Of a stretch of 64,000 bases of DNA, positions 1,636-61,850 are shown piece by piece. A model generated the notes under the pieces. It was not told the DNA's origin. It ran no database searches and was given only the letters and a program-made list of their open reading frames with translations. Source of the stretch: an uncultured Actinomycetota bacterium (GTDB lineage: Bacteria > Actinomycetota > UBA4738 > HRBIN12); contig CAWIUW010000004.1 of NCBI GenBank assembly GCA_963839395.1, positions 37,545 through 101,544 on the forward strand. The letters are read 5' to 3'. Position 1 is the stretch's first letter, and every line of letters starts with the position of its first letter. The position numbers and the translations under genes were made by a program.

Positions 1636-2337
1636 CTATCCTCGCAGCTTCCTCTCGGGGCCACCCCTTTTCGTGGCGCCACCCCTCTTCGTCGCGCCGT
1701 CCCTCCCGGCCGCGCGGGTCCTCGCCGGCGCCGCGAAGCGTCGGAGGCTCCCCGTGTCGTTCACGAGCAGGATCCGCGGCGCGCCCTCCCCGAGGTGGAC
1801 GACCGAGACCGATCCCGGGTCCGCCATCACCCGCTGGAACTGATCGAGGTGCGCGCCCGTGTAGTGGGCGATCAGCACGCTGACGAGGTCGCCATGCGTG
1901 CCGACGACGACCCGGCCGCGCGGGTGTCGGTGAACGATCCGCTCGACGTCGTCGAGGATCCGTGCCTCGGCGTCGACGAAGCTCTCGCCGCCCGGGAAGG
2001 AGAATCGAGAGGGATTGCGCTGCACCGTATCCCAGAGCTTCGTCCGACGGAGGGAGGGGAGGGTCCGCCCGGTCCAGTCCCCGGCGTCCATCTCGATGAG
2101 GCCGTCGGAGGAGCGGATCTCCAGCCCGCGGGCCTCCGCCAGCGGCTCCATCGTCTCGATGCAGCGTTCCAGCGGGCTGGAGTACAGGGCGGTGAGCCGA
2201 ACGCCATCGAAGCGTTCGACGAGCGCGGCCGCCTGCCGGCGGCCACGCTCGTCCAGATGGATCCCCGGCGTCCGGCCGTACAGCCGAGTGCCCGTCACGG
2301 CCGTCAGGCCGTGACGGATGAGGAAGACGGTCGTCAT
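1636..2337 (-). CDS. Histidine phosphatase family protein (phosphoglycerate-mutase-like)
   Basis: N-terminal RHG catalytic motif (MTTVFLIRHGLT) and downstream GTHGDL. The upstream part of the 473-aa ORF is an Arg/Ser-rich artefact. ATG at 2335-2337 (minus). Confidence 0.75.
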   Translation of the reverse strand: MTTVFLIRHGLTAVTGTRLYGRTPGIHLDERGRRQAAALVERFDGVRLTALYSSPLERCIETMEPLAEARGLEIRSSDGLIEMDAGDWTGRTLPSLRRTKLWDTVQRNPSRFSFPGGESFVDAEARILDDVERIVHRHPRGRVVVGTHGDLVSVLIAHYTGAHLDQFQRVMADPGSVSVVHLGEGAPRILLVNDTGSLRRFAAPARTRAAGRDGATKRGGATKRGGPERKLRG

Positions 2338-2419
2338 CGCGCAGGAGCATACGAGGGTCGACCCCGGCTCCCGGGCCCTCGCTCCCGTATGGGAGCATCG
2401 ACCCGTGGAAGTCAGTCGG

Positions 2420-3949
2420 TTGTCTCGCCACGACGACCGGCCGTTCGCGGTGGTGGACGTCGGCTCGAACTCGGCACGGATGATCGTGTTCCGCCTTCGC
2501 CCGGGCGAGCATCTGGACGTGCTCGAGGATGCGCGGGCGCCGCTCCGCCTCGGCCGAGAGCTGCGTGATGACGACGATCTCGGATCGGAGGCGATCGACC
2601 GAACCATCGAGACCCTCAGGGATTTCAAGGCGGTCGCTGACGGCGTAGGAGCCGACCGCATGATCGCCGTGGCGACGTCCGCCGTCCGCGAGGCTCGCGA
2701 CGGGAAGCGGCTCGTGCGGGAGGCGCTCGCCCTGGGGGTTCCGCTGGAGGTGATCGACGGCGACCTAGAAGCCAGGTTCGGGTTCCTCGGCGCCGTCCAC
2801 GACCTGCCGGTCGTGCACGGCGCCGCGATGGACGTCGGTGGGGGGAGCATGGAGCTCACGAGCTTCCACGACCGGCGGTTCGATCGATCCTGGACGTTCC
2901 CGTTCGGGTCCCTCCGCGTGAGCGATCGGTTCCTCGTATCGGATCCGCCTTCGGAGCGCGAGATGAAGGATCTGCGCAAGGCGGTGGCGGCGGCGCTCGA
3001 ACGATCGGAAGTGCCCTCGCTGGGCGTCTCCGGGCACCTCGTGGGCATCGGCGGCACGGTCCGGAACCTCGCGAAGATGGATCTTCGCCGGACCGATCAT
3101 CCGTTGCCGCTCCTGCATGGTTACGAACTCCGGGAGGAGAACCTCGAGTCGATCATCGAGGACCTCGCGGCTCGCACGATGAAGCGCCGTGCTCGGCTCC
3201 GGGGACTCAACCCCGACCGCGCCGACTCCATCGTGGGGGGTGCGCTCGTCGTGCTCGCCGCGATGCGACACCTCGAGGCGGATCGGGTGGTCGTGTCGAG
3301 TCGAGGACTCCGCGAGGGGCTCGCGCTGGGCGACCCGTCGGTCGTCCCCTCGCCTCGACAGGTGCGCACGATCTCCGCGGCCACGCTCGCTGCTCGGTTC
3401 GCGACGTGGAACGTCACCATCGCCGAGCGCCGGGCATCGCTCGGGGCACAGCTGATCGATGCCCTCGATCCCGATGCCACGACCTTCATCGTGGAGATGC
3501 TCGAGCATGCGGCGACGTTGCTCGACGTGGGGAAGGCGATCGATCACTACGAGCGGTTCGAGCACGCCGCAATGATCGTGACCACGGCGGACCTCGCCGG
3601 ATTCACCCACGAGGCACTGGGCGTCCTGTCCGCGATCCTCCGACACGCCGGCGGGGCGGCGAGTCTCGGGCCGTACGCCCGACTGATCCCGGCCGCCGAC
3701 CGACCAGCGGTCCGTCGGGCGGCCGTCGCGCTCGCCCTCGCGGAGGAGCTCCATCGGCGGATCCCTCCTGGGGAACAGGCGTCGATCACGTGCACATGGC
3801 GAGGTCGATTCGAGGTCGAGGCTCCGGTCCCGGCTCCGTGGCATCCCAGGAGCGTCGCGGATCGGTTCCGAGCGGTCTTCGGAGCCAAGCTCTCCATCGT
3901 CCCGGCGCCGGATCCTGGCCCGATCAACTCGGTGATGTCGCCCGATTAG
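2420..3949 (+). CDS. ppx: Ppx/GppA family exopolyphosphatase / guanosine pentaphosphate phosphohydrolase
   Basis: Motifs AVVDVGSNSARM and GGGSMEL (actin-like ATPase fold of Ppx/GppA). Alternative ATG start at 2318. Divergent from the histidine phosphatase gene. Confidence 0.8.
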   Translation: MSRHDDRPFAVVDVGSNSARMIVFRLRPGEHLDVLEDARAPLRLGRELRDDDDLGSEAIDRTIETLRDFKAVADGVGADRMIAVATSAVREARDGKRLVREALALGVPLEVIDGDLEARFGFLGAVHDLPVVHGAAMDVGGGSMELTSFHDRRFDRSWTFPFGSLRVSDRFLVSDPPSEREMKDLRKAVAAALERSEVPSLGVSGHLVGIGGTVRNLAKMDLRRTDHPLPLLHGYELREENLESIIEDLAARTMKRRARLRGLNPDRADSIVGGALVVLAAMRHLEADRVVVSSRGLREGLALGDPSVVPSPRQVRTISAATLAARFATWNVTIAERRASLGAQLIDALDPDATTFIVEMLEHAATLLDVGKAIDHYERFEHAAMIVTTADLAGFTHEALGVLSAILRHAGGAASLGPYARLIPAADRPAVRRAAVALALAEELHRRIPPGEQASITCTWRGRFEVEAPVPAPWHPRSVADRFRAVFGAKLSIVPAPDPGPINSVMSPD

Positions 3950-3967: not shown

Positions 3968-5119
3968 TCAGCGGCCGCGCGCGGTGGGCAGCCTCACCCG
4001 GAACGTCGTCCCGCGGCCGAGCTCGCTCTCGACCTCGACGCTGCCTCCATGGTTGTCGACCACATGCTTCACGATCGCGAGCCCGAGCCCCGTGCCACCC
4101 GTCTCGCGGGATCGCGCTCGGTCGACCCGATAGAAGCGCTCGAAGATCCGAGGGATGTCCCGCGACGGGATCCCGATCCCCGTGTCGGTCACTCGAAGCG
4201 TCACCTCTTCGCCGTCGGACTCGACCTCGACGTGCACCTTGTCGCCTTCGTGGCTGTAGCGGATCGCGTTGTCGATGAGGTTGCGAACCAGCAGGGTCAG
4301 ATCCCTCTGGGATCCGCGGACCGGCCGTTCGCGTCCGGCCAGGATCTCCAGGGTGACTCCCGACTGCTCCGCCGACTCTTTCAGCCGGTGTCCCTCCTCT
4401 CGGGCGGCTGCTCCGAGCGAAACGAGCTCGTCGAGCGCGCTCCCGGATTCCAGCCTCGACAGATCGAGGAGGTCGGCCACGATGCGCGAGAGACGGACGG
4501 CCTCGCGCTCGAGCTGCGACGCGAACCGAGGTACCGCAGCGGGATCGTCGGTCGCCGCCTGGCCGAGGGTCTCGGCGACGGCCTGGATGGTGGCGGCGGG
4601 CGTCTTCAGCTCGTGGGAGGCGTTGGCGACGAAGTCGCGTCTCACGTCCTCGAGCCGTCGCTGCTGGGTGACGTCGCGCACGACGACGAGGGTCGCGCCG
4701 TCCGCCGCGGGGGTGATCGTTGCGCGAAGCCAGCGAGGCGGGACCCCGATCTCGACCAGCACGGAGGTGGACTCGTCACGCTCGCGGCTCCGGTAGATCG
4801 CCGTTCGCAGCGCGAGCGGCAACACTTCATCGAGGGAGTCTGGCGTCGAGGGAAGGTGCCGGCCGATGGCGTCGTTCGCGAACGCCACGACGGCGTCTCG
4901 CCCGATGAGCAGTACCCCGTCCTGCATGGTCGACAGGACCAGGTCCCGGGTTCGGCGCCACTCCCGTGCCTCGAGCTGTCGTGCACTCCCCGCGGTTTCG
5001 GCCGCGACGGCCCGTTCCTCCCACGCCCGGGCCGACCGAACGGCTCGCGACATCGCCCAGGAGGCGGCCGCAACGACCGCGAGCGCCACCACGAGGACGA
5101 TCACCGTGACCGCGTCCAC
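3968..5119 (-). CDS. Two-component sensor histidine kinase, SenX3/PhoR-like (TM + PAS + HisKA + HATPase)
   Basis: H-box SHELKTP, then N/G1/G2 boxes (NLIDNAIRY, DTGIGI, GGTGLGLAIV). GTG start at 5117-5119. Divergent from the pst operon. Confidence 0.85.
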   Translation of the reverse strand: MDAVTVIVLVVALAVVAAASWAMSRAVRSARAWEERAVAAETAGSARQLEAREWRRTRDLVLSTMQDGVLLIGRDAVVAFANDAIGRHLPSTPDSLDEVLPLALRTAIYRSRERDESTSVLVEIGVPPRWLRATITPAADGATLVVVRDVTQQRRLEDVRRDFVANASHELKTPAATIQAVAETLGQAATDDPAAVPRFASQLEREAVRLSRIVADLLDLSRLESGSALDELVSLGAAAREEGHRLKESAEQSGVTLEILAGRERPVRGSQRDLTLLVRNLIDNAIRYSHEGDKVHVEVESDGEEVTLRVTDTGIGIPSRDIPRIFERFYRVDRARSRETGGTGLGLAIVKHVVDNHGGSVEVESELGRGTTFRVRLPTARGR

Positions 5120-5233: not shown

Positions 5234-5255
5234 GTTCACCTCGCGTTCACCTTGC
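5234..5255. promoter_or_regulatory. PHO box: tandem 11-nt direct repeats GTTCACCTCGC GTTCACCTTGC (PhoP/RegX3-type operator)
   Basis: Two perfect GTTCACC cores at 5234-5240 and 5245-5251, about 85 nt upstream of the pstS ATG. This matches the actinobacterial PHO-box consensus GTTCACC in 11-nt units. Confidence 0.6.
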
Positions 5256-5337: not shown

Positions 5338-6365
5338 ATGGTGAAGGGCAAGAAGTGGTTGTCGTGGGCGGCCTGCGCCACGGTGCTCATGATCGTGGCG
5401 ACGGCATGCGGAGGGGACGACGATCCCAACTCGCCGGCGAACACGCCTGAGGGGCTTACCGGATCGATCACGATCTCGGGCTCGTCCACGGTGGAGCCTG
5501 TCTCCTCGCTCGTGGCCCAGCTGTTCAACGAGACGAACCCGGATGTCGAGATCTCGGTCGACGGCCCGGGGACCGGGGACGGCTTCGAGCTGTTCTGCTC
5601 GGGGGAGATCGACATCGCCGATGCCTCGCGCGCGATCGAGGAGGAGGAGGTCACCGCCTGCGAGGACGGCGGGATCGAGTACACGGAGCTCGAGGTGGCC
5701 TTCGACGGGATCACCGTGATGGTGAACGCCGAGAGCGCGCTCGAGTGCCTCACGACGCAGGATCTCTACGCGATCTTCGGTCCGAACTCGGCAGACGTCG
5801 ATTCGACCGGCCAGGCCAACGCGATCTCGGAGCGGGTCGGCGGTGCCGGCACCATGCCAGACCAACCGCTGGAGATCACGGCTCCCGGCGAGGAGTCGGG
5901 GACCTACGATGCGTTCATCGAGCTCTCCGGGATCCCCGACTTCGCGGTCAGGACGGCGTCGCGGAGGACGACTCCGAGGCGCTGCGCGGCGACTACACGG
6001 CTTCGGGGAACGACAACGTGATCATCCAGGCGATGGAGGGCAGCCCGAACGCGATCGGCTTCGTCGGGTTCGCGTTCGCCGAAGAAGCGGGCGACGCGAT
6101 CAAGGAGGTCGGGATCGACGCCGGCGATGGGTGTGTCACGCCGTCGGCGGAGACGATCTCGGACGGCAGCTACCCACTCTCCCGGTCGCTGTACATCTAC
6201 CCCAACACGGCTACGGCCGGAGACGAAGAGGCCGTTCAGGCGTACGTCGACTTCTATCTGACCGATGATGGTCTGACCCTGGCGGTCGAGGAGGCGGGCT
6301 ACATCCCGCTTCCGGACGACCGCAAGCAGGCTACCCGCGATGCGTGGGAGTCTGCAGGCGCATAG
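5338..6365 (+). pseudogene. pstS: Phosphate ABC transporter substrate-binding protein PstS, interrupted by a 1-nt deletion
   Basis: ATG at 5338 with RBS GGGGAGG. Signal peptide plus lipobox (ATACGG). Frame 1 reads through ...GTYDAFIELSGIPDFA (about 5947). The protein then continues in frame 3 (QDGVAEDDSEALRGDYTASGNDNVIIQ...) to the stop at 6365. Shift lies at about 5947-5952. Confidence 0.75.
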
Positions 6366-6444
6366 AGCGAAAGCTGGTTCGGGCTCGGGCGTGACTGAGT
6401 GGCGCCCGAGCCGGATCGGCTCGGCGAAGGGGGTAGGGATCGGT

Positions 6445-7395
6445 ATGGCGTCGATCGCGGCGGAGGCACCCGACCGGATGCTCGCGACGCTCCGGGGAAG
6501 CTCCCGGCGTCGGCGGAGGGAACGCCTGGTCCGGACGCTGCTGGGTGCTGCCGCCGGGCTCTCGGTGGTGATCAGCATCAGCATCGTGCTCGCGTTGATC
6601 TTCCGGACGATCAACTTCGTGTCCAACGTGGAGCTCTCGTCGCTCTGGTCGGGCATCTGGCGACCGAGGCAGGGCGAGTTCGACCTGATCTCCTTGTTCT
6701 ACGGATCCCTTGTCGTCACCGGTATCGCGATGGCAGTCGCTACGCCGCTCGGCCTCGGCGCGGCCGCCTACCTCTCTGAGTACGCGAAGCCGGGCGCGCG
6801 CCGGAAGTTGAAGCCGATCCTCGAGACGCTCGCGGGCGTCCCCAGCGTCGTGATCGGGTTCTTCGCGCTCACGGTGATCAACCCGGTCATCGTGCAAGAC
6901 CTCTTCGGCGCGACGAACACGTTCACGATGATGGCCGCCGGGATCGGCGTCGGGGTCCTCACGATCCCCCTCGTGGCGTCGGTGGCCGAGGACGCGATGT
7001 TCGCCGTGCCGCGCGCGTTGCGCGAAGCGGCCTACGGGATCGGCGCGCGGCGACGGACCGTGACGCTCCGCGTCGTGTTCCCGGCTGCGATCTCGGGGAT
7101 CGTGGCCGCCTTGATCCTGGGGATCTCCCGAGCGGTCGGCGAGACGATGGTGGTGGCGATCGCAGCAGGTGGGTCCGGCAACGCGACGCGCACGTTGAAC
7201 CCCTTCGAGCCGAACCAGACGCTCACCGCGGCGATCGCTTCGCTCGCGATCGGGTCCGACCAGGTGCAGACGAGAGGATCGGGGCTCAACGCCTTCGAGG
7301 CCCTCTACCTCGTGGGCTTCGTCCTGTTCGTGTTCACGCTCCTGCTGAACATCGTGAGCGAGCGCTTCGTGCGGAAGTTCCGGAGGGCCTACTGA
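6445..7395 (+). CDS. pstC: Phosphate ABC transporter permease PstC
   Basis: Six TM segments and the EAA-like loop ...AEDAMFAVPRALREAAYGIGA. ATG at 6445. Stop overlaps the pstA start (ATGA). Confidence 0.85.
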   Translation: MASIAAEAPDRMLATLRGSSRRRRRERLVRTLLGAAAGLSVVISISIVLALIFRTINFVSNVELSSLWSGIWRPRQGEFDLISLFYGSLVVTGIAMAVATPLGLGAAAYLSEYAKPGARRKLKPILETLAGVPSVVIGFFALTVINPVIVQDLFGATNTFTMMAAGIGVGVLTIPLVASVAEDAMFAVPRALREAAYGIGARRRTVTLRVVFPAAISGIVAALILGISRAVGETMVVAIAAGGSGNATRTLNPFEPNQTLTAAIASLAIGSDQVQTRGSGLNAFEALYLVGFVLFVFTLLLNIVSERFVRKFRRAY

Positions 7396-8340
7396 TGGCG
7401 GTCGCCACGCCGACGGCCACCCGGAGCACCGTGGAGCTCGCACTCGCGGGGAGGAGGAGCGACGTCTCCGGCCGGATCTTCTCCGCGCTGTTGCTGCTGT
7501 GCCTGCTCGTCTCGCTCGGCGTGCTGATGGTCCTGCTGGGATCCGTGCTCATCGATGCGTGGCCGGTCCTCTCGGAGCGCGGTTTCGGATTCGTGACAGG
7601 GAACCTGTCGGATTTCGAGAGCCGAGCGGGTGTCTGGCAGGGCTTGATCGGCTCGTTGATCCTGATCGCGTTCGTCGGCGGTGATCGCGGTTCCTCTCGG
7701 GGTCGCCGCCGCGATCTACCTGCAGGAGTACGCCCGCGACACGAGGGCGACCCGGTCGTTGATCGCCAACATCCGGAACCTCGCCGGAGTGCCGTCGATC
7801 GTCTGGGGGATCCTCGGGGTTGTCGTCTTCGCGCAGCTCCTCCGGGGCATCACGGGACCGGACGTGAACGGTCTGAGCTACATCTCGGGAGGGCTGACGC
7901 TCGCCGTGCTCGTGATGCCGTTCCTGATCATCATCACGATGGAGGCGCTCCGGGCCGTTCCTCAGGGGATCCGCGAGGCCGCCTACGGCGTCGGCGCCAC
8001 CCGATGGGAGGTGGTCCGGAGCCACGTCCTGCCGTACGCGGCTCCGGGGGTGTTCACCGGGACGATCCTCGCGCTCGCCCGAGCCTTCGGAGAGGCCGCG
8101 CCGATCCTCCTCGTCGGGGCCGTGACCGGCTATCTCACCCCCGGCGGGGGCGACGGCCTGATCGACACGCTCCAGGGCAAGTACACAGCGCTCCCGACGA
8201 TCATCTACTCATGGTCCAGGAAGCCGGGGGATGAGTGGCCCGCCCTCACGGCGGCCGCGATCGTGGTGTTGCTGGTCGTGATCCTCGTGGTGAACCTCGC
8301 GGCGATCCTGCTGAGGAACCGATATGAGCGGAAGTGGTGA
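7395..8340 (+). pseudogene. pstA: Phosphate ABC transporter permease PstA, interrupted by a 1-nt insertion
   Basis: The N-terminal half is in frame 3 up to ...SLILIAFV (about 7675). The C-terminal half (VIAVPLGVAAAIYLQEYA...EALRAVPQGIREAAYGVGATRWE...) is in frame 1. One extra base lies near 7676-7682. Confidence 0.75.
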
Positions 8341-9217
8341 CGACGTGGATACTAGGACGATGCGAGAGCCGGACCCCACGACCGGCCGGGAGGCCATCGT
8401 GAGCGTCGACACCTCGATGGCGCCGACGCCGAGCACCGACGCTCCGCTGATCTTCGACATCAAGGACCTCTCGGTCTTCTACGGCGACTTCCGCGCTGTG
8501 CGAGATGTCACGATCACGATCCGCGAGCACGAGATCACCGCCCTGATCGGCCCGTCGGGGTGCGGCAAGACCACGTTCCTGCGGTGCCTGAACCGGATGA
8601 ACGACCTGATCGAGGGAGCGCGGGTGGAGGGCACACTCCTGTACCACGGGGTCGACCTGTACGACGAACGGGTCGACCCGGTCGAGGTGCGTCGACGGAT
8701 CGGGATGGTGTTCCAGAAGCCCAACCCGTTCCCGAAGTCGATCTACGACAACGTCGCCTTCGGTCCGAGGATCGCCGGCTTCAAGGGCAACATGGACGAT
8801 CTGGTCGAGGAGTCCCTGCACCGGGCGGCGCTGTGGGACGAGGTGAGGAAGAAGATCAAGGACTCGGCCATGGCGCTCTCGGGCGGCCAGCAGCAGCGCC
8901 TCTGCATCGCGCGCGCGATCGCCACGAAGCCGGACGTGATCCTCATGGACGAGCCGTGCTCCTCTCTCGACCCGATCGCCACGTCGAAGATCGAGGACCT
9001 GATGCGCGACCTCGTGTCCGAGTACACGATCGTGATCGTGACGCACAACATGCAGCAGGCGGCGCGGGTCTCCGACCGTACGGCCTTCTTCACCGTGGAC
9101 GTGGCCGAGGACGGTCATCGCACCGGGCACATCGTGGAGTTCGATCGCACGGAAGCCATCTTCACGAATCCCTCGGACCGGCGAACCGAGGACTACGTGA
9201 CGGGAAGGTTCGGATGA
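8324..9217 (+). CDS. pstB: Phosphate ABC transporter ATP-binding protein PstB
   Basis: Walker [10 protein letters not shown], signature LSGGQQQR and Walker B ILMDEP. Overlaps the pstA end and the phoU start. Confidence 0.9.
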
Positions 9218-9906
9218 CGCGGGAACACTTCCATGAGCAACTCGAACGCGTCGAGCTCGAATTGCTCTCGATGGGCGAGTTGGCGTCGACCGCGATCCAA
9301 CGCTCGGTCGAAGCACTGGTGCAACACGACACCGAGGCGGCGGAAGCCGTGATCCGGGGCGACGATGCGATCGACGAGATCTACCTCCGTATCGACAGCG
9401 GTGTGCTGGAGATGCTCGCCCTGCAGTCACCGGTCGCAACCGAGCTCCGCCTCGTCTCGGCGATCCTGCACAGTTGCCTCCACCTCGAGCGGATCGGGGA
9501 CCAGGCGGTCAACATCGCCAAGCACTACCTCGCGACGCAGGATCTGCCGCCGAGCCAGACCCTCTTGCTCCAGCTCGAGGAGATGGGGGTGCACGTCGTC
9601 ACGATGATCCGATCCGCGATGGAGGCGTTCCGGACGCGCGACCTCGAGCTGTGCCTGAAGTTGCCGAAGATGGACGATCCGGTCGATCGCCTCAACCGAG
9701 CGACGCACCTCGAAGCGCTCAAGTTGGCCGACGATCCGAGGTCGCTCGACTGGGGACTCCACATGAACCTCGCGGCGCGGGCGCTCGAGCGGGTCGGTGA
9801 CAACGCCGTGGACATCGGGGAGCAGGTCGGATTCCTCATCACCGGGGAGTTCCGTGAGTTCACGGATGCCTCGCACGACGTTCCGGATGTGGGTGGTGAC
9901 ATCTGA
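9214..9906 (+). CDS. phoU: Phosphate signalling complex protein PhoU
   Basis: Two PhoU repeats with metal-binding motifs ([22 protein letters not shown]). ATG at 9214 inside the longer spurious ORF. Confidence 0.85.
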
Positions 9907-9935
9907 GCGCCGACGAACCCCTGACGCAGATCCTG

Positions 9936-10604
9936 GTGGTTGAGGACGAGGAGTCGCTCGCGGACACCGTTCGCTACAACCTGGAACGGGAGGGGTACGC
10001 GGTCGCGGTGGCAACCGACGGTCGTCGCGCGCTCGACCGGTTCCGCTCGGAGGATCCGGCCCTCGTGATCCTGGATCTGATGCTTCCCGAGATGTCGGGG
10101 CTCGACGTCTGCCGTCAGATCCGCCAGATCTCCAACGTCCCCATCATCATGGTGACCGCGAAGGACTCGGAGGCCGACAAGGTCTCGGGGCTCGAGCTCG
10201 GCGCGGATGACTACGTCACGAAGCCGTTCTCCGTCCGGGAGCTCGTCTCTCGTGTGCGGGCGCACCTGCGCCGGGCGGGGATGCGCGCCGCCCAACCGGA
10301 GGAGGACGTGCTCAACGGAGGTCCCGTCTCACTCGACGTCGCGAAGCACGAGGTCTTCGTTCGGGGTGAAGCGGTGGGGTTCCCTCCCAAGGAATTCGAG
10401 CTGCTCGAGACGTTCCTGCGCCGGCCGGGCCGGCTGCTCACGCGTGACTTCCTCATCGAGGAGGTCTGGGGCGCAGGGTACTTCGGTGATACGAAAACGC
10501 TCGACGTCCACGTCAAGCGGATCCGCAAGAAGGTGGAGCAAGATCCCCATCAGCCGGAGCACCTCCTCACCGTCAGGGGTCTCGGGTACAAGTTCGTCGG
10601 CTGA
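9936..10604 (+). CDS. OmpR-family response regulator, RegX3/PhoP-like
   Basis: REC domain (VEDEESLADT...LDLMLPEMSG) plus winged-helix domain (LLTVRGLGYKFVG). There is no in-frame ATG. The earliest possible starts after the stop at 9897-9899 are CTG 9903 and GTG 9936. Confidence 0.8.
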   Translation: MVEDEESLADTVRYNLEREGYAVAVATDGRRALDRFRSEDPALVILDLMLPEMSGLDVCRQIRQISNVPIIMVTAKDSEADKVSGLELGADDYVTKPFSVRELVSRVRAHLRRAGMRAAQPEEDVLNGGPVSLDVAKHEVFVRGEAVGFPPKEFELLETFLRRPGRLLTRDFLIEEVWGAGYFGDTKTLDVHVKRIRKKVEQDPHQPEHLLTVRGLGYKFVG

Positions 10605-10697
10605 GCGGCCGTGCACTGGATGCCTTCCTCCGCAGTCTCGAGCCCCTATCGGCCGACTGGCGATCCGACACGGCGAGCAGCTAGCATCGACGCTCCG

Positions 10698-12746
10698 ATG
10701 GCGGATCCCTTCCCCCGCACCGAGCGTTTCCTCAACCGCGAGCTCTCCTGGCTGGAGTTCAACGCTCGCGTCCTCGCGCTCGCCGAGGACGACTCGAATC
10801 GGCTCCTCGAGCGGGTGAAGTTCCTCGCGATCTTCGGCTCCAACCTGGACGAGTTCTTCCAGGTGCGTGTCGCGGGCCTGCAGGAGCAGCGGGAAGCGGG
10901 CCTGGGCCCTGCGTCGCCCGAGGGATCGACACCCGAGGAGCAGCTCGCCGGCATCATGGAACACGTGGCCGAGCTCGGCCGCCGAACGGACGTGTTGTGG
11001 GTCGATGACCTCCAGCCGGCGCTCGAGAAGGAAGGGGTGAGGCTCGTCGATTGGGCCGAGCTCGACGTCCACGACCGTACGCACCTGGGAGAGCTGTTCC
11101 GGGAGCGGATCTTCCCCGTGCTGACCCCGCTCTCGGTCGACCCGGCGCACCCGTTCCCCTACATCTCGTCCCTGTCGCTCAACCTCGCCGCTCTCGTTCG
11201 CGACCCCTCGAGCGGAGAGCGGCGCTTCGCACGAGTGAAGGTGCCGCCTCTGCTCCCGCGGTTCATCGAGATGCCCGACGGCGAGCGGTTCGTCCCGATC
11301 GAGCAGGTGATCGCATCGCACCTCGAGGTCCTGTTCCCGGGCATGGAGATCGTCGGTCATTCGGCGTTCCGCCTGACCCGAGACGCGGATTTCGATCTGG
11401 AGGAGGAGGAGGGCGGGGATCTCCTCGAGGCGATCGAGTCCGTCCTGCGGCGCCGACTTCGAGGCGCCACCCCGGTTCGGCTCGAGCTCGACGCGTCCTC
11501 CAGCGACGAGGTACGGACGCTGTTGACGCGAGAGCTCGCGCTCCTGCCCGACGAGGTGTTCGTCGTGGAGGGGCTCCTCGATCCCTCCGCGCTGTGGTCC
11601 CTCTACGAGCTCGAGCGTCCGGAGCTCAAGGACGACCCGTGGACCCCCGTGACCCAGCCTCGGCTGGAAGGGGTGGAGGACTTCTTCGAGGTCATCTCGA
11701 ACGGTGATCTCCTCGTCCACCACCCCTACGATTCCTTCGAGACCTCGGTCGAGGCGTTCATCGAGCAAGCGGCGCAGGACCCAACCGTCCTCGCGATCAA
11801 GCTCGCCATCTACCGAACATCCGTGGAGAGCCCGATCGTGCGTGCCCTGGTGCGCGCCGCCGAAGCGGGCAAGCAGGTCGTCGCGCTCGTCGAGCTCCAA
11901 GCGCGCTTCGACGAGCGCGCCAACATCACGCAGGCTCGCACGCTGGAACAGGCGGGCGTCCACGTGGTCTACGGCATCGTGGGGCTGAAGACGCACGCCA
12001 AAGTGTGCCTGGTGGTTCGCCGCGAGGCGTCCGGTATCCGTCGCTACGCGCACGTCGGCACCGGCAACTACAACCCGAGCACCGCCCGCCTGTACGAGGA
12101 CGTCGGTCTGCTGACCGCGGATCCGGAACTCGGTGCCGATCTCAGCGATCTGTTCAACCTGCTCACCGGCTACGGCCGGCAGCAGACGTATCGCCGCCTG
12201 CTGGTCGCACCCACGGATCTCAAACAGAGGTTGATCGGATTGATCCGCGCGGAGGCGGCGGCTGGGGACGGATCCATCGTGCTGAAGATGAACAGCCTGG
12301 GGGATGCGGAGACCATCGACGCGCTCTACGAAGCCTCGCGCTCGGGAGTGGGTGTGGATCTGATCGTCCGAGGGATCTGCTGCCTCCGGCCGGGGGTCCC
12401 CGGTCTCTCCGATACCATCCGGGTCCGGTCGATCGTCGGCCGCTACCTGGAGCATTCGAGGATCTTCCGGTTCGGCAGCCTCGAGCGTGGCTACCAGCAC
12501 TTCATCGGCTCCGCGGATCTGATGCCTCGGAACCTCGAGCGACGCGTCGAAGTGACCGTTCCGGTGCTCGATCCCGCGCTGTGCGCGCGTCTCGACGAGA
12601 TCCTCCGAACGGCACTGGAGGACGATGTGCTCGCGTGGGATCTCGGATCCGACGGCGTGTGGAAGAAGGTGGAGACGGAGCGTGGTCTGAGCGCCCAAGA
12701 GCGGCTCATGCAGATCGCCGTCGAGCGAGGGGAGAGCCGTCGATGA
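10698..12746 (+). CDS. ppk: Polyphosphate kinase 1
   Basis: N-terminal RFLNRELSWLEFNARVL; PLD-like motifs HAKVCLV and GTGNYN. 683 aa. Stop overlaps the CHAD start (ATGA). Confidence 0.9.
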   Translation: MADPFPRTERFLNRELSWLEFNARVLALAEDDSNRLLERVKFLAIFGSNLDEFFQVRVAGLQEQREAGLGPASPEGSTPEEQLAGIMEHVAELGRRTDVLWVDDLQPALEKEGVRLVDWAELDVHDRTHLGELFRERIFPVLTPLSVDPAHPFPYISSLSLNLAALVRDPSSGERRFARVKVPPLLPRFIEMPDGERFVPIEQVIASHLEVLFPGMEIVGHSAFRLTRDADFDLEEEEGGDLLEAIESVLRRRLRGATPVRLELDASSSDEVRTLLTRELALLPDEVFVVEGLLDPSALWSLYELERPELKDDPWTPVTQPRLEGVEDFFEVISNGDLLVHHPYDSFETSVEAFIEQAAQDPTVLAIKLAIYRTSVESPIVRALVRAAEAGKQVVALVELQARFDERANITQARTLEQAGVHVVYGIVGLKTHAKVCLVVRREASGIRRYAHVGTGNYNPSTARLYEDVGLLTADPELGADLSDLFNLLTGYGRQQTYRRLLVAPTDLKQRLIGLIRAEAAAGDGSIVLKMNSLGDAETIDALYEASRSGVGVDLIVRGICCLRPGVPGLSDTIRVRSIVGRYLEHSRIFRFGSLERGYQHFIGSADLMPRNLERRVEVTVPVLDPALCARLDEILRTALEDDVLAWDLGSDGVWKKVETERGLSAQERLMQIAVERGESRR

Positions 12747-13684
12747 CGGATCGCGACGCGATGGCGTTGGCGCTCGCCGAGCAGGTGGAGCTGGAGCTGG
12801 ATCAGCTCACCCGGCTCGCCGAGGGGGCGACCGCGCTCGACGTCATCAGATCCGCGATCGCCGTTTCCACCGTGAGGCTCACGTCGAGCGACCCGGTCGT
12901 CAGGGCCGGCGAAGATCCAGAGGGTGTCCACAAGGCGCGGGTCGCAGCCCGGCGGCTGCGCTCGGATCTCCGGACCTTCCGGCCGTACCTCGACCGAGAC
13001 TGGGCCGATGCGCTGCGAGACGAGATCGGATGGCTCGGCCGACTCCTCGGACCGGTTCGCGACGCGGAGGTACTCGCTGCCAGACTCAGGCGCCGGGTCG
13101 CGGCGATGGTCGGGCTCGGCCCGCCCTCCGCGAAGATCCTCCTCGACGGTCTCGAGAGCGATCGCCTCGCCGGTCGACGCCTACTCCTCGAGGGCATGCG
13201 CTCCCGAAGGTACCAAGAGCTCGTCGTGAGGCTCGTGCGGGCCGCACGGGAACCGGCGTCGAGGGGTGAGGGGATCGATCGGCCGGCGGTGAGCACCGGC
13301 TCACTGATGAAGCGCCCCTGGGCGAAGCTCTCCGGGGATGCGACGGCGCTCGGTCCCGGCTCGAGCGACGGTGCACTCCACGCCACCCGGATCGAGACGA
13401 AGCGGGTGCGCTACGGGGCCGAGGCCCTGATCCCCGTGTTCGGCAAGCGGGCGGCTCGCTTCGCCTCCGCAGCGGAAACGCTGCAGGAGACCCTCGGCGA
13501 ACACCAAGATGCCGTCGTCGCGATGGCCTGGCTCACGGAGCGGGCGATGGAGGCCGACGATCGGGCGGTGGCGTTCACCGCGGGACGCCTCGCGGAGCTC
13601 GAGACCGTCTCACGCGATCGAGCGCGAGAGGCCTGGCCGAAGGCGTGGAAGCGCCTCGAACGACGGAAGCGCTTCTGGACGTGA
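12743..13684 (+). CDS. CHAD-domain protein (polyphosphate-granule-associated helical domain)
   Basis: Basic-rich helical domain with HKARVAARRLRSDLRTF...HATRIETKRVRY. Translationally coupled between ppk1 and the MutT1-like gene. Confidence 0.65.
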   Translation: MTDRDAMALALAEQVELELDQLTRLAEGATALDVIRSAIAVSTVRLTSSDPVVRAGEDPEGVHKARVAARRLRSDLRTFRPYLDRDWADALRDEIGWLGRLLGPVRDAEVLAARLRRRVAAMVGLGPPSAKILLDGLESDRLAGRRLLLEGMRSRRYQELVVRLVRAAREPASRGEGIDRPAVSTGSLMKRPWAKLSGDATALGPGSSDGALHATRIETKRVRYGAEALIPVFGKRAARFASAAETLQETLGEHQDAVVAMAWLTERAMEADDRAVAFTAGRLAELETVSRDRAREAWPKAWKRLERRKRFWT

Positions 13685-14592
13685 CGAGCGAGATCCGCGC
13701 GGCGGGGGCGGTGGTGCTTCGGCGTGAGGACGGACGAGTGCTGACGGTGCTCGTGCACCGGCCTCGATACGACGACTGGTCGCTCCCGAAAGGGAAGCTG
13801 CACGATGGCGAATCCTTCGAGGAGGCAGCCGTGCGCGAGGTCTCGGAGGAGACGGGACTCGAGGGCCGGTTGCGCGCCGAGCTGCCGCCGTCTCGCTACG
13901 TCGATCAGGAAGGGAGGCCCAAGGTCGTCCGCTACTGGACCATGGAGGTGCTCGACGGGCGCGACCTCCATCCGACCATGGAAGTGGATGACGCGAAGTG
14001 GTTCACCCTCGCCGAGGCTCGTGGCATCCTCAGCTACGACCGGGACCGAGAGGTCCTCGACGCCGCCGCGGGGCTTGACGTTCCCGCCTATCTCCTCCGT
14101 CACGCGAAGGCAGGTGATCGTGAGGCGTGGCCCGGAGACGATGATTCACGACCGCTCTCGAACACGGGTCGTCGGCAAGCCAAAGGTCTCGTCCGAGCAC
14201 TGGCGGACGTGGTCATCGAGCGGATCCTGAGCAGTCCGGCCGTCCGCTGCGTGGAGTCGGTGAGACCACTGTCCGAGCAGCGCGGGCTCCCGATCGAGCC
14301 ACGAGACGAGCTCCTCGAGGGTGCGCCGCTCTCCGGCCTGCTCGCGTTGCTCGACGAGCTCCGATCCCCGACGGTCTTCTGCGGACACGGAGACCTGATC
14401 CCGGCAGCCATCGAGCACTTCGAGGCACGAGGAGCAGTCGTCGGGCCGGATCGGGGCTGGAAGAAGGGCTCCGTCTGGGTGTTGGAACGGGAATCCGGGC
14501 TCGTCGTGCGTGCGACCTACGTCCCGCCTCCCGAGGGTGGACGCGAAGAAGCCACCGCGTCGCAACCGTCTGGTGAGCGCCGCGACCCCTGA
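13681..14592 (+). CDS. NUDIX hydrolase fused to a histidine-phosphatase (SixA-like) domain, MutT1-like
   Basis: Nudix box GKLHDGESFEEAAVREVSEETGL. C-terminal RHAKAG...CGHGDL histidine-phosphatase motifs. Same ppk1-adjacent synteny as mycobacterial mutT1. Confidence 0.75.
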   Translation: MTSEIRAAGAVVLRREDGRVLTVLVHRPRYDDWSLPKGKLHDGESFEEAAVREVSEETGLEGRLRAELPPSRYVDQEGRPKVVRYWTMEVLDGRDLHPTMEVDDAKWFTLAEARGILSYDRDREVLDAAAGLDVPAYLLRHAKAGDREAWPGDDDSRPLSNTGRRQAKGLVRALADVVIERILSSPAVRCVESVRPLSEQRGLPIEPRDELLEGAPLSGLLALLDELRSPTVFCGHGDLIPAAIEHFEARGAVVGPDRGWKKGSVWVLERESGLVVRATYVPPPEGGREEATASQPSGERRDP

Positions 14593-14668
14593 GCCTTGAC
14601 CCGGGCCGTTGCGACAGCCGTCACGCTCGTGATATCCACCTCCGGCCGAACACGAAGGGGTCACAAGG

Positions 14669-15295
14669 ATGCCGAAGCTCCGGTTCAGGCTCGTCCCCCG
14701 GGACGAGAGCTTCTACGAGATGTTCGTCAATCTGGCGGTGAAGGTCGAGGAGGGGGCAGCCGCGTACCAGGACCTCGTCGTGGACTATCAGGACGTGACG
14801 CGGAAGGCCGATCGATTGAAGGACCTGGAACACGAGGGCGATGAGGTTACCCACGAGATCATGAAGCGGCTGAATACGGTCTTCGTGACGCCACTCGACC
14901 ACGAGGACATCCACCGCCTCGCCTCCGGCCTGGATGACGTGCTCGACCACATCGAGGCTGCCGCGGATCTGTTCGTGCTCCACAAGATCGAGCAGCCGCT
15001 GCCAGAGATGAAGGCGCAAGCCGACATCCTCGTGCAGACTTGCAGGGTCACTCGAGAGGCGCTCGAGATGCTCCCGAAGTTCAAGGAGCTCGAACGGTTC
15101 TGGGTCGAGGTCGATCGACTCGAGAAAGAAGGGGATCGGGTCTACCGGCGGGCCATCGCCGGACTCTTCGGCGGTGAGTACAAAGCGATGGACGTCCTGA
15201 AGTGGCGAGATGTCATCGACGAAACGGAAGGAGCCATCGACCAACTCGAGGACGTTTCGAACATGCTCGAGGCGATCGCCTTGAAGAACGCCTGA
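14669..15295 (+). CDS. DUF47 (PhoU-like) Pit accessory protein
   Basis: TIGR00153-like helical protein. RBS GAAGGGG. Stop overlaps the pit start (ATGA). Confidence 0.75.
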   Translation: MPKLRFRLVPRDESFYEMFVNLAVKVEEGAAAYQDLVVDYQDVTRKADRLKDLEHEGDEVTHEIMKRLNTVFVTPLDHEDIHRLASGLDDVLDHIEAAADLFVLHKIEQPLPEMKAQADILVQTCRVTREALEMLPKFKELERFWVEVDRLEKEGDRVYRRAIAGLFGGEYKAMDVLKWRDVIDETEGAIDQLEDVSNMLEAIALKNA

Positions 15296-16284
15296 TGGTC
15301 TGGTTCGTCCTCTTCCTCGCATATCTGTTCGAGTTCGCCAACGGGTGGACCGATGCGCCGAACTCGATCGCGACCGTCGTGTCCACGAGGGTGATGCGGC
15401 CGCACCACGCGGTGCTGATGGCCGGCGTGTTGAACCTCGTGGGCGCGCTCACCGGAACCGCGGTCGCAAAGACGATCGCCGAGGGCATCGTGGATCCCGA
15501 TTACGTCGGTCTCGAAACGGTCGCATCTGCCCTCTTGGCCGCCACGATCTGGGCGCTGGCCGCGCAGTACTTCGGGTTGCCCTCGAGCGAGTCGCACGCC
15601 CTCGTCGCCGGACTGCTCGGCGCCGGGTTCGCCGCGGGTGGACTGGAGGCGCTCGAGAGCGAGGGGACGCGTGCATCACTCATCGGGCTTATCACCTCCC
15701 CGCTCGGTGGGTTCCTGCTCGGATTCGGCCTGATGGTGTTGATCTACCGGGTCTTCGCGCGCGTTGGAAGGGCCACGGTGCGGAGGGTCTTCGGCAAGGG
15801 GCAGGTCCTTTCCGCGGCGTTCATGGCCTTCAGTCACGGGACGAACGACGCACAGAAGACGATGGGGATCATCGCCCTCACCATCGCGCTCAACGAGGCC
15901 GGGACCGCGGGCAACGTCGGCGAGCTCACGATCGATCCCTGGATCATCGTCTCCGCCGGGCTCGTGATGGGCCTCGGCACCATGATCGGGGGCTGGCGGG
16001 TCGTCCGCACGTTGGGGATGCGGATGACCCACCTCGAACCCGTCCAGGGGTTCGCGGCAGAAACGGGTGCCGCGACGGTGATCACGGTCGCGGCTCGGCT
16101 CGGCATCCCGGTCTCGACGACCCACGCGATCGGTTCCGCGATCATGGGCGTCGGCGCGACCAAGCGCTTCTCCGCCGTCCGTTGGGGTGTGGCGGGACAG
16201 GTCGTCGCCGCCTGGGTCCTCACCTGGCCTACATGCGCCGTGCTCGGGTTCTTCCTGCAGAAAGTCTTCGCGTTCGTCATGTGA
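15295..16284 (+). CDS. pit: Inorganic phosphate transporter, PiT family
   Basis: PHO4 signature GWTDAPNSIATVVSTRV...FSHGTNDAQKTMGII. Multi-pass membrane protein. Confidence 0.85.
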   Translation: MVWFVLFLAYLFEFANGWTDAPNSIATVVSTRVMRPHHAVLMAGVLNLVGALTGTAVAKTIAEGIVDPDYVGLETVASALLAATIWALAAQYFGLPSSESHALVAGLLGAGFAAGGLEALESEGTRASLIGLITSPLGGFLLGFGLMVLIYRVFARVGRATVRRVFGKGQVLSAAFMAFSHGTNDAQKTMGIIALTIALNEAGTAGNVGELTIDPWIIVSAGLVMGLGTMIGGWRVVRTLGMRMTHLEPVQGFAAETGAATVITVAARLGIPVSTTHAIGSAIMGVGATKRFSAVRWGVAGQVVAAWVLTWPTCAVLGFFLQKVFAFVM

Positions 16285-16297
16285 TCGAGAGCTGAGA

Positions 16298-16717
16298 TCA
16301 CGTCGAGGCGGGTGGCCTCGACCGGCTCATCCGGTGGATCTCCTTCGTGAGATCGAGGATCTGAATGGACACCGCGAGGAGCTCCTCGTTCTGCTTCTCC
16401 TCGGCCTGCACGAGCTGCCACTGGTGCTCGGCAAGCTGCTCGCGCTTCAGATCGGCGCGGTTCTGGCTGATCATCACGAAGGTCGACAGGAAGATGGCCT
16501 CCAGGGACACGATCATCGTCAGAAGTCCGAACGGGTAGGACTCCACGCGGAAGCCGATCCATGCGGCGAACCAGACGATGTGCAGATACACGAACGGCAT
16601 CGAGCCGGCGAACTCGGTGATCGCATCGGCGATCCTGTTCTGCAGGCTCCGACTTCGCTCCTCCGCAGACTCCGTCAGGATCGGATTCGTCCACGTGGTC
16701 TTGCGTCGCCGCGCCAT
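16298..16717 (-). CDS. DUF1003 domain membrane protein
   Basis: MARRRKTTW...PFVYLHIVWFAAWIGF...ISQNRADLKREQLAEHQWQLVQ. ATG at 16715-16717 (minus). Confidence 0.6.
   Translation of the reverse strand: MARRRKTTWTNPILTESAEERSRSLQNRIADAITEFAGSMPFVYLHIVWFAAWIGFRVESYPFGLLTMIVSLEAIFLSTFVMISQNRADLKREQLAEHQWQLVQAEEKQNEELLAVSIQILDLTKEIHRMSRSRPPAST
16302..16322. terminator. Putative stem-loop (GTCGAGGC-GGGTG-GCCTCGAC) between convergent pit and DUF1003
   Basis: Perfect 8-bp GC-rich stem with a 5-nt loop and no U-tract. It overlaps the last codons of the DUF1003 gene. Confidence 0.25.
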
Positions 16718-20548: not shown

Positions 20549-21739
20549 CTACCCCGCCGCGGGGACGGGCGCCCGTGTCAATGCCGCGAGCTCTTCTTCG
20601 CCTTCCTCCGGTCCGACGGAGATCACCCGGTCCCCTTCCTGGAGGGTGAACCCCGAGCGGGGTCGGTAGATCCACCGGGAACCACGTTGGACGGCGAGCA
20701 CGAACATGCCGGTCTCGGTCTCGACGCGGAGCTCTTTGAGCGACCGCCCCGCGGCCTCCGACCCCCGTTCGACCACCACCTCCGAGCTCGTCTCCTCGGT
20801 CTCCTCCAGGGCGAGCTGGACGACCGGATGCAATGGCTCTCCCTGCTCCACGTACCAGGTCATGTCGCGGGCTGCGTCGCAGACGTACTCCGACGCGGCG
20901 CCGAGTCGCAGGAGGCCGCGGAGCGCATCTGGATCGCGAGCCTCCGGCGCCGCCCGAAGGACCCAGGATTCGAGCTCGTCGTGCAGGATGTCCGATCGAG
21001 CCTCGAGGGTCCCGACCTCGGCCGCCAGGGAACGGTTGTTGAACAACAAGGCGGAATACGCGAGTCCGACCGCCGCCTCGGCGAGGTCTTTCAGCTCGAC
21101 GAGGATGTCCACCGCTCGATCAAGCTCCGAGAGCGGGGGCGCCTCGTCGCCGGGTGCCTCCGGCAGCGGCGGGGCACCGGCCAGCTCACGTACGTGGTTC
21201 ACCCCTTCCTCGGGGCCGCGGATCAGGAGCACGTCGCCGACGGCGACCACGTCTTCGGCGCCGGGATCGAAGCGCCAGTCCATCCCGCTCCGGATCGCGA
21301 CCACCCACATGCCCGATTCCGTCGGGAGCGAGAGATCGCGGAGCGTGCGGCCGGCTGCAGGGGCGTCGTCGCGGATCTTGATCCTCGCCGTCATCTCGTC
21401 GGCGTGACGGAGATCCTGTCGGAGCGCGTCTGGGATCCCGAGCCGGGCGGCGACGACGCGCGCGATGTCGGAGGCGGCATCGCCCACGCGCTCGATCGCA
21501 TGCGCGATCCACAGGACCCCGGCCATCCCTTCGGCGTCCTCGGGGCTACGGGCGGCGAGCATGGCGGTGATGCGAAGGCGGCGGAGGTGTTCGCTCATCC
21601 GCTGCTCGAGCCGTTCGACCTCCTGCGCCAGCTTCTCCTCGTTGAAGAAGACGGCCGCGTAGGCCAGGTCGACCATGAGCTCGGACGCGTCTTTCAGCTC
21701 GACCAGGAGGTCCTTGACGTTCCGAGGTTGTTCGTCCAT
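20549..21739 (-). CDS. Regulatory protein with two PhoU-like + TrkA-C (RCK_C) repeats
   Basis: Each repeat has a PhoU-like helical segment followed by a TrkA-C beta-rich segment. ATG overlaps the MgtE stop (ATGA). Confidence 0.6.
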   Translation of the reverse strand: MDEQPRNVKDLLVELKDASELMVDLAYAAVFFNEEKLAQEVERLEQRMSEHLRRLRITAMLAARSPEDAEGMAGVLWIAHAIERVGDAASDIARVVAARLGIPDALRQDLRHADEMTARIKIRDDAPAAGRTLRDLSLPTESGMWVVAIRSGMDWRFDPGAEDVVAVGDVLLIRGPEEGVNHVRELAGAPPLPEAPGDEAPPLSELDRAVDILVELKDLAEAAVGLAYSALLFNNRSLAAEVGTLEARSDILHDELESWVLRAAPEARDPDALRGLLRLGAASEYVCDAARDMTWYVEQGEPLHPVVQLALEETEETSSEVVVERGSEAAGRSLKELRVETETGMFVLAVQRGSRWIYRPRSGFTLQEGDRVISVGPEEGEEELAALTRAPVPAAG

Positions 21740-22995: not shown

Positions 22996-23192
22996 CGTGG
23001 CTCACCCCCGAAGGGTTCGTCAGGCGCTCGTCAGGCTCGCGCGTGCGCGAGTACCCCCCGGCGTGCCGGGTCGGGAGGAGCTCGGGCGTGCGGCTCCGCG
23101 AGGACATAAGGGCACCGTCATCGATCGTGATCCTTCGTGAGAACGTCGCGCCGTCGGGACGCCTCGGCGGCCCGCGCAGTATATGCCGAGGG

Positions 23193-25195: not shown

Positions 25196-25235
25196 CCTGC
25201 CAGAGCGTCAACGTGCGGCGGATACACTTGCGTCC

Positions 25236-61750: not shown

Positions 61751-61850
61751 CGCGCGGACGGTACCTGTGAACCCGGGGTCACTCAAGCACCCGGGTAGCA
61801 TCTCTGCCGTAGCCCAGATGGAGGTTACCCATCCAGGGGTATCGCCCAAG

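Follow-up and report, generated by a model that had tools for sequence, protein, structure and literature searches.

The 64-kb window (the whole stretch of DNA analysed here) carries a phosphate-acquisition locus with a divergently oriented sensor histidine kinase gene, pstS, pstC, pstA, pstB and phoU, a response regulator gene and ppk. This is the gene order of the PhoP-regulated pstSCAB locus of Streptomyces, the model for actinobacterial pstSCAB operons, in which the PHO box consists of 11-nt GTTCACC direct repeats. In the window, pstS and pstA are each divided between two reading frames, and a second set of phosphate transport genes lies further downstream. The features of the locus are as follows.

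3968-5119, minus strand: intact sensor histidine kinase gene (PhoR-like), divergent from pstS; HisKA and HATPase_c domains at full coverage
5234-5251, plus strand: direct repeat resembling a PHO box, with GTTCACC occurring twice at an 11-nt period; exact match to GTTCACCNNNNGTTCACC, with the start codon of pstS about 87 nt downstream
5338-5949, plus strand: 5' part of pstS, encoding the lipoprotein signal and N-terminal lobe as far as ...IPDFAV; TIGR02136 positions 2-181, PF12849 positions 8-148
5950-6365, plus strand: 3' part of pstS, in the -1 frame relative to the 5' part; TIGR02136 positions 186-295
6445-7395, plus strand: intact pstC; TIGR02138 positions 1-295 of 296, 224 bits, over the cutoff
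7395-7680, plus strand: 5' part of pstA, encoding the first transmembrane segment as far as ...LILIAFVG, with the extra G at 7680/7681 included; TIGR00974 positions 2-64 (7395-7679)
7681-8340, plus strand: 3' part of pstA, in the +1 frame, from VIAVPLGV... to the stop; TIGR00974 positions 68-271, 200 bits, and PF00528
8324-9217, plus strand: intact pstB; TIGR00972 positions 2-248 of 248, 385 bits
9214-9906, plus strand: intact phoU, two PhoU domains (PF01895); single-frame tblastn match in relatives
9936-10604, plus strand: intact OmpR-family response regulator gene (PhoP-like); Response_reg and Trans_reg_C domains
14669-15295, plus strand: intact DUF47 (PhoU_div) gene; PF01865 positions 30-213 of 214
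15292-16284, plus strand: intact pit/PHO4; PF01384 positions 1-350 of 350

Profile coverage bears out the reading of pstC, pstB, phoU and pit as intact in an earlier note on this DNA, and ppk is likewise complete. The same note described the PHO boxes as intact, and an exact two-unit repeat, which reads GTTCACCTCGCGTTCACC, is indeed kept at 5234-5251. The PHO-box-like pattern recurs in six related loci, including a copy about 87 nt upstream of pstS in locus L003. As in the Streptomyces PHO box, the arrangement GTTCACC-N4-GTTCACC is exact and lies upstream of pstS; by analogy with Streptomyces we presume that it is a PhoP-binding site, and PhoP binding is a prediction here. Unlike the Streptomyces model, the host belongs to an uncultured soil lineage of Actinomycetota known from MAGs alone. 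The DUF47-Pit pair, about 6 kb downstream of pst, is missing at that position in relatives L002, L025 and L026.

Reading frames in the window were called by segmentation of codon-usage log-odds (a sliding-window plot of GC3 was discarded as too noisy). The 5' frame of pstS starts with ATG at 5338, keeps a high coding score as far as 5949 and then continues as an out-of-frame tail to a stop at 6019-6021, giving an N-terminal open reading frame of 227 aa as sequenced. The frame holding the 3' part opens at 5949 and ends at a stop at 6363-6365. The two unrepaired pieces score 138.6 and 84.2 bits, both under the TIGR02136 cutoff of 206.6 bits, and no single open reading frame matches the PstS family (TIGR02136/PF12849) from end to end. 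DNA alignment to four relatives (L002, L003, L004 and L006) places the break at a single G missing between 5949 and 5950: the window reads GTC-AGG where the relatives read GTCGAGG, or, in wider context, GCGGTC-AGGACGG against GCGGTCGAGGACGG in 4/4 relatives, and the sequence expected without the indel is GTCGAGGAC. With the G restored, PstS is 342 aa long and aligns without gaps to 10 homologues, reading IPDFA-V-E/Q-DGVAEDD at the junction; a gapless alignment to the intact PstS P0001 gives 90% identity.

The break in pstA is of the opposite kind. Aligned to the same four relatives, the window has a surplus G at 7680/7681 (GGCGGTG against GGC-GTG; in wider context GTCGGCGGTGATC against GTCGGC-GTGATC or GTCGGG-GTGATC), where GGCGTGATC would be expected. 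As sequenced, the C-terminal open reading frame encodes 219 aa, and no one frame joins the N-terminal transmembrane segment to the BPD_transp_1 core of a PstA permease (TIGR00974/PF00528). Removal of one G yields a PstA of 314 aa that aligns without gaps to intact homologues and is 94-98% identical, in a single frame, to the PstA of L002, L003, L004, L006, L025 and L026. We also considered a split PstA that still works, made of the N-terminal transmembrane piece and a core starting from GTG at 7681; this idea found no support, and no relative is so organised.

These alignments agree with the earlier note, which had put a lost base near 5947-5952 in pstS and an added base near 7676-7682 in pstA. 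Its frame assignments and indel directions (-1 in pstS, +1 in pstA) are correct by profile matches and by alignment to relatives, and its observation that both halves of each protein are conserved extends to repaired products that align end to end. The comparison with orthologous pst loci that it had proposed finds the relatives in frame at both sites.

Two further genes of the window are divided in the same manner.

44692-45608, plus strand: LLM-class F420-dependent oxidoreductase gene, split over two frames; LLM profile positions ~15-97 (N-terminal piece) and ~141-260 (C-terminal piece)
61848-63571, plus strand: hutU (urocanate hydratase), split over three frames; TIGR01228 positions 2-222, 229-381 and 385-543

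Together these genes hold three one-base breaks that the earlier note had overlooked. In hutU, DNA alignment to JGI contigs L028 and L029 locates two +1 indels about 480 nt apart, at ~62546-62549 (GCGAAGA[A]CGG) and ~63027-63035 (CTGCT[C/G]GCGG), and after repair the product matches intact HutU proteins of 550-564 aa at 94% identity, with 100% of its length aligned. The oxidoreductase gene has a single -1 shift, which the frame switch confines to ~45095-45125. At least five isolated single-nucleotide indels in four genes (pstS, pstA, hutU with two, and the LLM-class oxidoreductase gene) therefore occur within 64 kb, a scatter over unrelated conserved genes of one contig that is expected of long-read error. 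Profile coverage is complete in about 40 other genes of the window, and no nonsense mutations, larger deletions or insertion sequences were seen among its ~60 predicted genes. Four indel sites could be placed to the exact base; no homopolymer there exceeds 2-3 bases, and the four have no error motif in common (GGTC[-G]AGG, GGC[+G]GTG, AAGA[+A]CGG and CTGCT[+C/G]GCGG). A methylation-motif artefact was considered as a source of the indels and dropped as unsupported, the sites being without a common motif. Clustering of the indels is above that of a uniform error model (P ~0.04 for two hits in one operon and P ~0.008 for two hits in one gene).

The broken genes show the same constraint as their neighbours. 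Measured against L003, Ka/Ks is 0.13 and 0.14 in the halves of pstS and 0.13 and 0.065 in those of pstA, while the intact neighbours pstC, pstB and phoU have values of 0.077, 0.138 and 0.088, respectively; the three hutU pieces, at 0.07-0.11, are similar to neighbouring genes. Relaxed selection is seen in neither half of pstS or pstA nor in the hutU pieces by this measure, which is blind to a very recent genuine mutation. The restored pstS and pstA frames contain no stops. The marks of a biological pseudogene (raised Ka/Ks, nonsense codons, deletions, loss of the regulatory site) did not appear, and the PHO box is kept.

Among related loci, frameshifts track the type of assembly. Frame changes in tblastn matches reveal frameshifts in pstS, pstC, pstA or pstB in 7 of 11 loci on Flye-style 'contig_N' sequences and in 0 of 34 on contigs of MEGAHIT, SPAdes or JGI style (Fisher's exact p = 7e-6), the type being judged from contig names, record titles and PMC12313526. 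Counts of gaps of non-3n length in nucleotide alignments were discarded, since they were noisy in divergent stretches. Breaks present in long-read relatives and absent from short-read ones are the pattern that long-read error predicts, and in the 'contig_N' loci they sit at positions that differ from those of the window and from one locus to another. These loci come from Microflora Danica (MFD) MAGs and matching ENA metagenome assemblies, and almost all of the nearest relatives at the DNA level are from the MFD project. The MFD long-read catalogue is Nanopore-only, assembled with Flye --meta and passed once through Medaka, without short-read polishing (PMC12313526). Indels in Nanopore consensus sequences lead to frameshifted gene calls, and bins below ~40-fold coverage need polishing with short reads (Sereika et al. 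2022, PMC9262707). As in Nanopore-only assemblies (PMC9262707, PMC12313526), isolated single-nucleotide indels in the window split conserved genes scattered over unrelated functions; as in relatives from the MFD pipeline, the same kind of break affects the same operon at other positions. We infer that the window itself comes from a Flye-style long-read assembly.

The pstSCA block also has an unusual pattern of identity. Between species, nucleotide identity is 92-96% in pstSCA and 73-87% in the flanking genes, with Ks of 0.16-0.2 in the block against 0.5-1.2 in neighbouring genes; the closest relatives of the window share ~95% identity in pstSCA and ~85% in the flanks. In L022, L023 and L027, dense frameshifts are confined to this block. 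Searches of genome and metagenome contig collections with the repaired PstS and a chimeric query spanning both junctions returned no pst relative closer than ~95%, and the single same-species sequence found, L001, at 98% identity, is a Logan contig of 3.3 kb from run ERR11563255 that came from a look-up with DUF47 and spans window positions 12063-15351, outside pst. One further contig with an exact match to a protein of the window belongs to the 50-200 kb size class. Look-ups for exact copies of the 227-aa PstS and 219-aa PstA reading frames and of PstC gave no hit. Errors may gather in pstSCA because the block appears near-identical between co-occurring species, whose reads or assembly-graph paths would be merged during consensus making; the contrast in identity between pstSCA and its flanks could thus explain a locally poor consensus.

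On these data, the most likely cause of the breaks in pstS and pstA is single-base error in the consensus of a long-read metagenome assembly, probably one made without short-read polishing, a reading in which we have fairly high confidence. Long homopolymers are the main context of Nanopore errors (PMC9262707, PMC12313526), and unlike typical Nanopore errors the located sites of the window lie outside them; the absence of this classic failure mode at every located site counts against assembly error. So does the clustering of hits in the pst operon and in hutU, which is equally expected of a genuine pseudogene as neutral hits build up. Of the two options raised by the earlier note, the artefact is now better supported, if unproven, and a coherent loss of function specific to Pst is weakened because unrelated genes (hutU and the LLM-class oxidoreductase gene) carry like lesions, selection is unrelaxed, frameshifts follow assembly type and neither a repeat nor a long homopolymer marks the pst sites.

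It is nonetheless worth asking what the sequence would mean if taken as correct. The frameshifts could be genuine and very recent, leaving PstS and PstA lost and the Pst transporter dead, with hutU and the LLM-class oxidoreductase gene as further recent pseudogenes. Pit would then be the route of phosphate entry, with probable derepression of the PhoR/PhoP regulon, by analogy with pst mutants of model bacteria; in E. coli, loss of PstSCAB or PhoU reportedly derepresses the Pho regulon, according to Wanner and colleagues. The lesions are truly present in the sequence, they lie outside homopolymers, their pairing within one operon and one gene fits neutral decay after a first hit, and the intact DUF47-Pit pair, where some relatives have none, offers another route for phosphate. 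The loss of PstS and PstA with PhoR/PhoP, PhoU and Pit intact would, if real, be the classic genotype of pst mutants in model organisms, though here derepression of the regulon is a prediction and, unlike in those mutants, unrelated genes have the same lesions. The lesions touch four unrelated functions and so do not add up to a coherent phosphate-related state. Purifying selection on the broken pieces, the restriction of lesions to single-nucleotide indels among ~60 genes, the retention of the PHO box and all regulatory genes, and the absence of operon frameshifts from every short-read-style relative also argue against genuine loss, which we consider unlikely. Quite unlikely as well is its fuller form, in which a soil population has really lost pstS and pstA while keeping PhoU, PhoR/PhoP, a recently gained DUF47-Pit pair and the genes for polyphosphate, with pstSCA exchanged between species.

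Correct sequence could also be reconciled with full-length PstS and PstA if programmed frameshifting (-1 in pstS, +1 in pstA) or transcriptional slippage joined the halves, which are conserved in both genes and adjoin exactly at the break. Conserved halves in adjacent frames are likewise found in the +1 frameshifting of prfB and the -1 frameshifting of dnaX and IS3-family elements; unlike those systems, the window sites have no slippery motif or stimulatory element, and no orthologue is frameshifted there. GAC TTC GCG GTC AGG contains no X XXY YYZ heptamer, GTC GGC GGT GAT combines no slippery codon with an in-frame stop or a pause at a rare codon, and no homopolymer run would permit polymerase slippage, in accord with the earlier note's finding of no obvious frameshift-prone motif. 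Two genes would moreover need shifts in opposite directions, and since every relative examined, long-read or short-read, is in a single frame at both sites, the frameshift is not a conserved feature. Phase variation is not indicated, as neither pst site lies in a repeat or long homopolymer. We therefore rejected programmed frameshifting, transcriptional slippage and phase variation for want of motifs or repeats and because all orthologues are in frame, and regard recoding as extremely improbable. A special case of artefact, in which the consensus blends two co-existing strains or species through chimeric collapse of a shared pstSCA cassette, draws on the high identity and low Ks of pstSCA relative to its flanks and on the many frameshifts confined to it in three relatives. 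Yet pstS and pstA of the window have one indel each in an otherwise clean pstSCA, and a blend would have to account for hutU (which is highly conserved) and the LLM-class gene as well; we hold it to be very improbable.

Read literally, the lesions would have this organism annotated as Pst-deficient and Pho-constitutive, which is probably an over-reading of assembly noise; were they real, it would be a wild case of a 'pst-null, Pho-constitutive, Pit-dependent' state. The contig needs frameshift-aware annotation or polishing before loss of function is inferred for pstS, pstA, hutU or the LLM-class oxidoreductase gene. For long-read assemblies of this clade more widely, the pstSCA block, a near-identical cassette common to several species, is especially error-prone. 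The apparent sharing of this cassette between species, to which mosaic identity and low Ks point, is the sole biologically interesting by-product of the analysis. Phosphate-acquisition genes are mobile in environmental bacteria, and cassette sharing is consistent with that mobility. In the organism itself, the most likely state of pstSCAB-phoU is that of an intact and ordinary operon for high-affinity phosphate uptake under PhoP control.

The window (68.8% G+C) carries at 3.9-16.3 kb a typical actinobacterial phosphate cluster, in which pstS and pstA, starting at 5338 and 7395, are accompanied by the following features.

3968-5119, minus strand: sensor kinase (histidine kinase), divergent from pstS
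6445-7395: pstC
8324-9217: pstB
9214-9906: phoU
9936-10604: OmpR-type response regulator
10698-12746: ppk
between ppk and the DUF47-Pit pair: CHAD protein and NUDIX/histidine-phosphatase protein
14669-16284: DUF47-Pit pair

The stretch 5234-5251, which precedes the pstS start codon by about 87 nt, is an exact direct repeat, GTTCACC-N4-GTTCACC, and the pattern is also present in six related loci. In Streptomyces, pstSCAB-phoU is under PhoP/PHO-box control, and apart from its frame breaks the operon in the window resembles that arrangement. Polyphosphate genes flank the operon and are all intact: ppk and the CHAD protein (10698-13684) and ppx (2318-3949). The DUF47-Pit region (14537-16325) is missing at the same position in three related loci (L002, L025 and L026), where synteny picks up at DUF1003 and CorA genes, and L001, a Logan contig with 98% identity, contains DUF47; the pair is a lineage-specific insertion of a low-affinity phosphate transporter beside the pst/ppk cluster.

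An earlier note, made from the sequence alone, held that pstS is frame-broken by one missing base and pstA by one extra base, and profile searches split both matches between frames exactly as it described. In pstS, the reading frame from 5338 covers TIGR02136 positions 2-181 and the -1 frame from 5949 covers positions 186-295; in pstA, the reading frame from 7395 covers TIGR00974 positions 2-64 and the +1 frame from 7681 covers positions 68-271. Alignment with the four closest pst loci fetched (L002, L003, L004 and L006; 92-96% nucleotide identity to the window in pstSCA) located both lesions: one G is absent from pstS between 5949 and 5950, where the window has GCGGTC-AGGACGG and all four relatives GCGGTCGAGGACGG, and pstA has one surplus G at 7680/7681, where the window has GTCGGCGGTGATC and the relatives GTCGGC-GTGATC or GTCGGG-GTGATC. 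Neither gene is a single full-length ORF as sequenced, and both are after a one-base repair, which yields a PstS of 342 aa that aligns without gaps to ten homologues (junction IPDFA-V-E-DGVAEDD) and a PstA of 314 aa in a single frame with 94-98% identity to intact relatives.

Segmentation of the six frames by codon-usage log-odds, flagging coding signal that left an ORF well before its stop codon, revealed two further broken genes. The urocanate hydratase gene hutU (61848-63571) occupies three frames (61848-62555, 62569-63036 and 63038-63571), matching TIGR01228 positions 2-222, 229-381 and 385-543; alignment with two JGI contigs (L028 and L029) placed +1 lesions at ~62546-62549 (GCGAAGA[A]CGG) and ~63027-63035 (CTGCT[C/G]GCGG), and after repair HutU shares 94% full-length identity with intact proteins of 550-564 aa. 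An LLM-class F420-dependent oxidoreductase gene (44692-45608) is split between two frames (44692-45102 and 45099-45608) by a -1 break within ~45095-45125. Pfam scans gave full profile coverage for ~40 further genes, and no nonsense codon, larger deletion or insertion sequence was seen in the window. Together, the segmentation, alignments and Pfam scans therefore show four unrelated genes hit by isolated single-base indels, at least five in all, with no other kind of damage.

Among other genes of the window, a second PhoU-domain protein (20552-23001, minus strand), fused to two TrkA_C domains, adjoins an MgtE-domain transporter, and the two may form a regulated divalent-cation or phosphate-linked transporter pair. 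At 25230-28975, a peptidase S51 (cyanophycinase-like) gene directly 5' of a cyanophycin synthetase gene (964 aa) constitutes a nitrogen-storage module; in this region a DksA/TraR zinc-finger gene lies in the same frame right after the stop codon.

Ka/Ks values (Nei-Gojobori, against L003) were 0.13 and 0.14 for the 5' and 3' pieces of pstS and 0.13 and 0.065 for those of pstA, alongside 0.077 for pstC, 0.138 for pstB, 0.088 for phoU, 0.085 for the response regulator and 0.092 for ppk. The three hutU pieces gave 0.07-0.11 against L028 and L029, similar to adjacent genes. Since these ratios are low in all pieces, purifying selection acted on either side of every break, and the indels are either very recent in evolution or non-biological.

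Uncultured soil Actinomycetota MAGs make up the closest genomes; nearly all either bear an "MFD...bin" label and Flye-style "contig_N" names or belong to matching ENA metagenome assemblies. The long-read catalogue of Microflora Danica (MFD) was built from Nanopore data alone, using Flye --meta --nano-hq and then one Medaka round (PMC12313526); the same group reported that Nanopore consensus indels give rise to frameshifted gene calls and that bins below ~40-fold coverage still need short-read polishing (PMC9262707). In a frameshift-aware tblastn comparison with the window's repaired proteins, many long-read loci were themselves frameshifted, at other places in the operon than the window.

Frameshifts in related long-read loci
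L002: pstA, phoU, response regulator, ppk; pstB-phoU called as a fusion
L006: histidine kinase, ppk
L019: pstB
L022: histidine kinase, pstS, pstC, pstA (many times)
L023: pstC (five), pstA, phoU
L025, L026: pstS
L027: pstS, pstA, pstB

In none of the 34 contigs named in MEGAHIT, SPAdes or JGI style did a pst gene change frame; with assembly type taken from names and record titles, pstSCAB frameshifts thus occurred in 7 of 11 Flye-style loci vs 0 of 34 short-read-style contigs (Fisher p = 7e-6). L025 and L026 (both 9894-10915), from different samples, have PstS broken identically at about residue 37-39: the signal peptide lies in a different frame, and the two loci have the same 307-aa gene call. 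Either this variant is real or one sequence context gives rise to a systematic consensus error. The single 513-aa PstB-PhoU protein called in L002 (12989-14530) is probably an artefact, because a +1 indel near the pstB stop codon was found in that locus only.

Relatedness across the operon is mosaic. Nucleotide identity to L002, L003, L004 and L006 is 92-96% in pstSCA vs 73-87% in the genes on either side (ppx, histidine kinase and ppk), and Ks against L003 is 0.16-0.2 in pstSCA vs 0.5-1.2 in pstB and the genes beyond it. For pstB-phoU, the window is nearest to L027 and L022 (phoU 96% nucleotide identity in both; pstB 96.5% and 92.6%, respectively). On these comparisons the pstSCA cassette has evidently been exchanged between these species, and the pattern over 5338-9906 suggests that related soil Actinomycetota have exchanged pst cassettes by recombination, a breakpoint lying close to where pstA meets pstB. 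Where several such species occur together in one soil metagenome, reads and graph paths of different species would converge on the pstSCA block, a plausible cause of poor local consensus; the dense frameshifts limited to pstSCA in L022, L023 and L027 are consistent with this idea.

The earlier note had left two outcomes, loss of Pst if the breaks are real and an indel-prone assembly if they are not; five indels in four unrelated genes with normal Ka/Ks favor the latter. We consider an assembly artefact the probable origin of the pstS and pstA breaks, which most likely represent no biological feature: the lesions would fit it in being all indels, in their scatter across unrelated genes, in the two hits to an otherwise pristine hutU, in Ka/Ks values that are normal throughout and in the way frame breaks among relatives appear to follow assembly technology. 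A version in which haplotypes were collapsed is very improbable. Counting against an artefact, the indel sites lie outside homopolymers, and a pair of hits in a single operon (P ~0.04) and another in a single gene (P ~0.008) are tighter than uniform errors predict. Such clustering is also expected from real decay after inactivation, a point in favor of a genuine recent loss of Pst, which we nevertheless regard as unlikely. Recoding that yields full-length PstS and PstA has the slightest chance of all; inspection of both pst sites found no slippery heptamer, stop-codon context, homopolymer run or tandem repeat, upholding the earlier view that no ribosomal-frameshift motif is obvious.

As a practical outcome, the contig calls for polishing or frameshift-aware annotation. 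If genuine, the lesions would give a genotype like that of the classic pst-null, Pho-constitutive mutants, an already known state of modest interest in a wild population. Independently of the breaks, pstSCA appears to act as an exchanged cassette within the clade.
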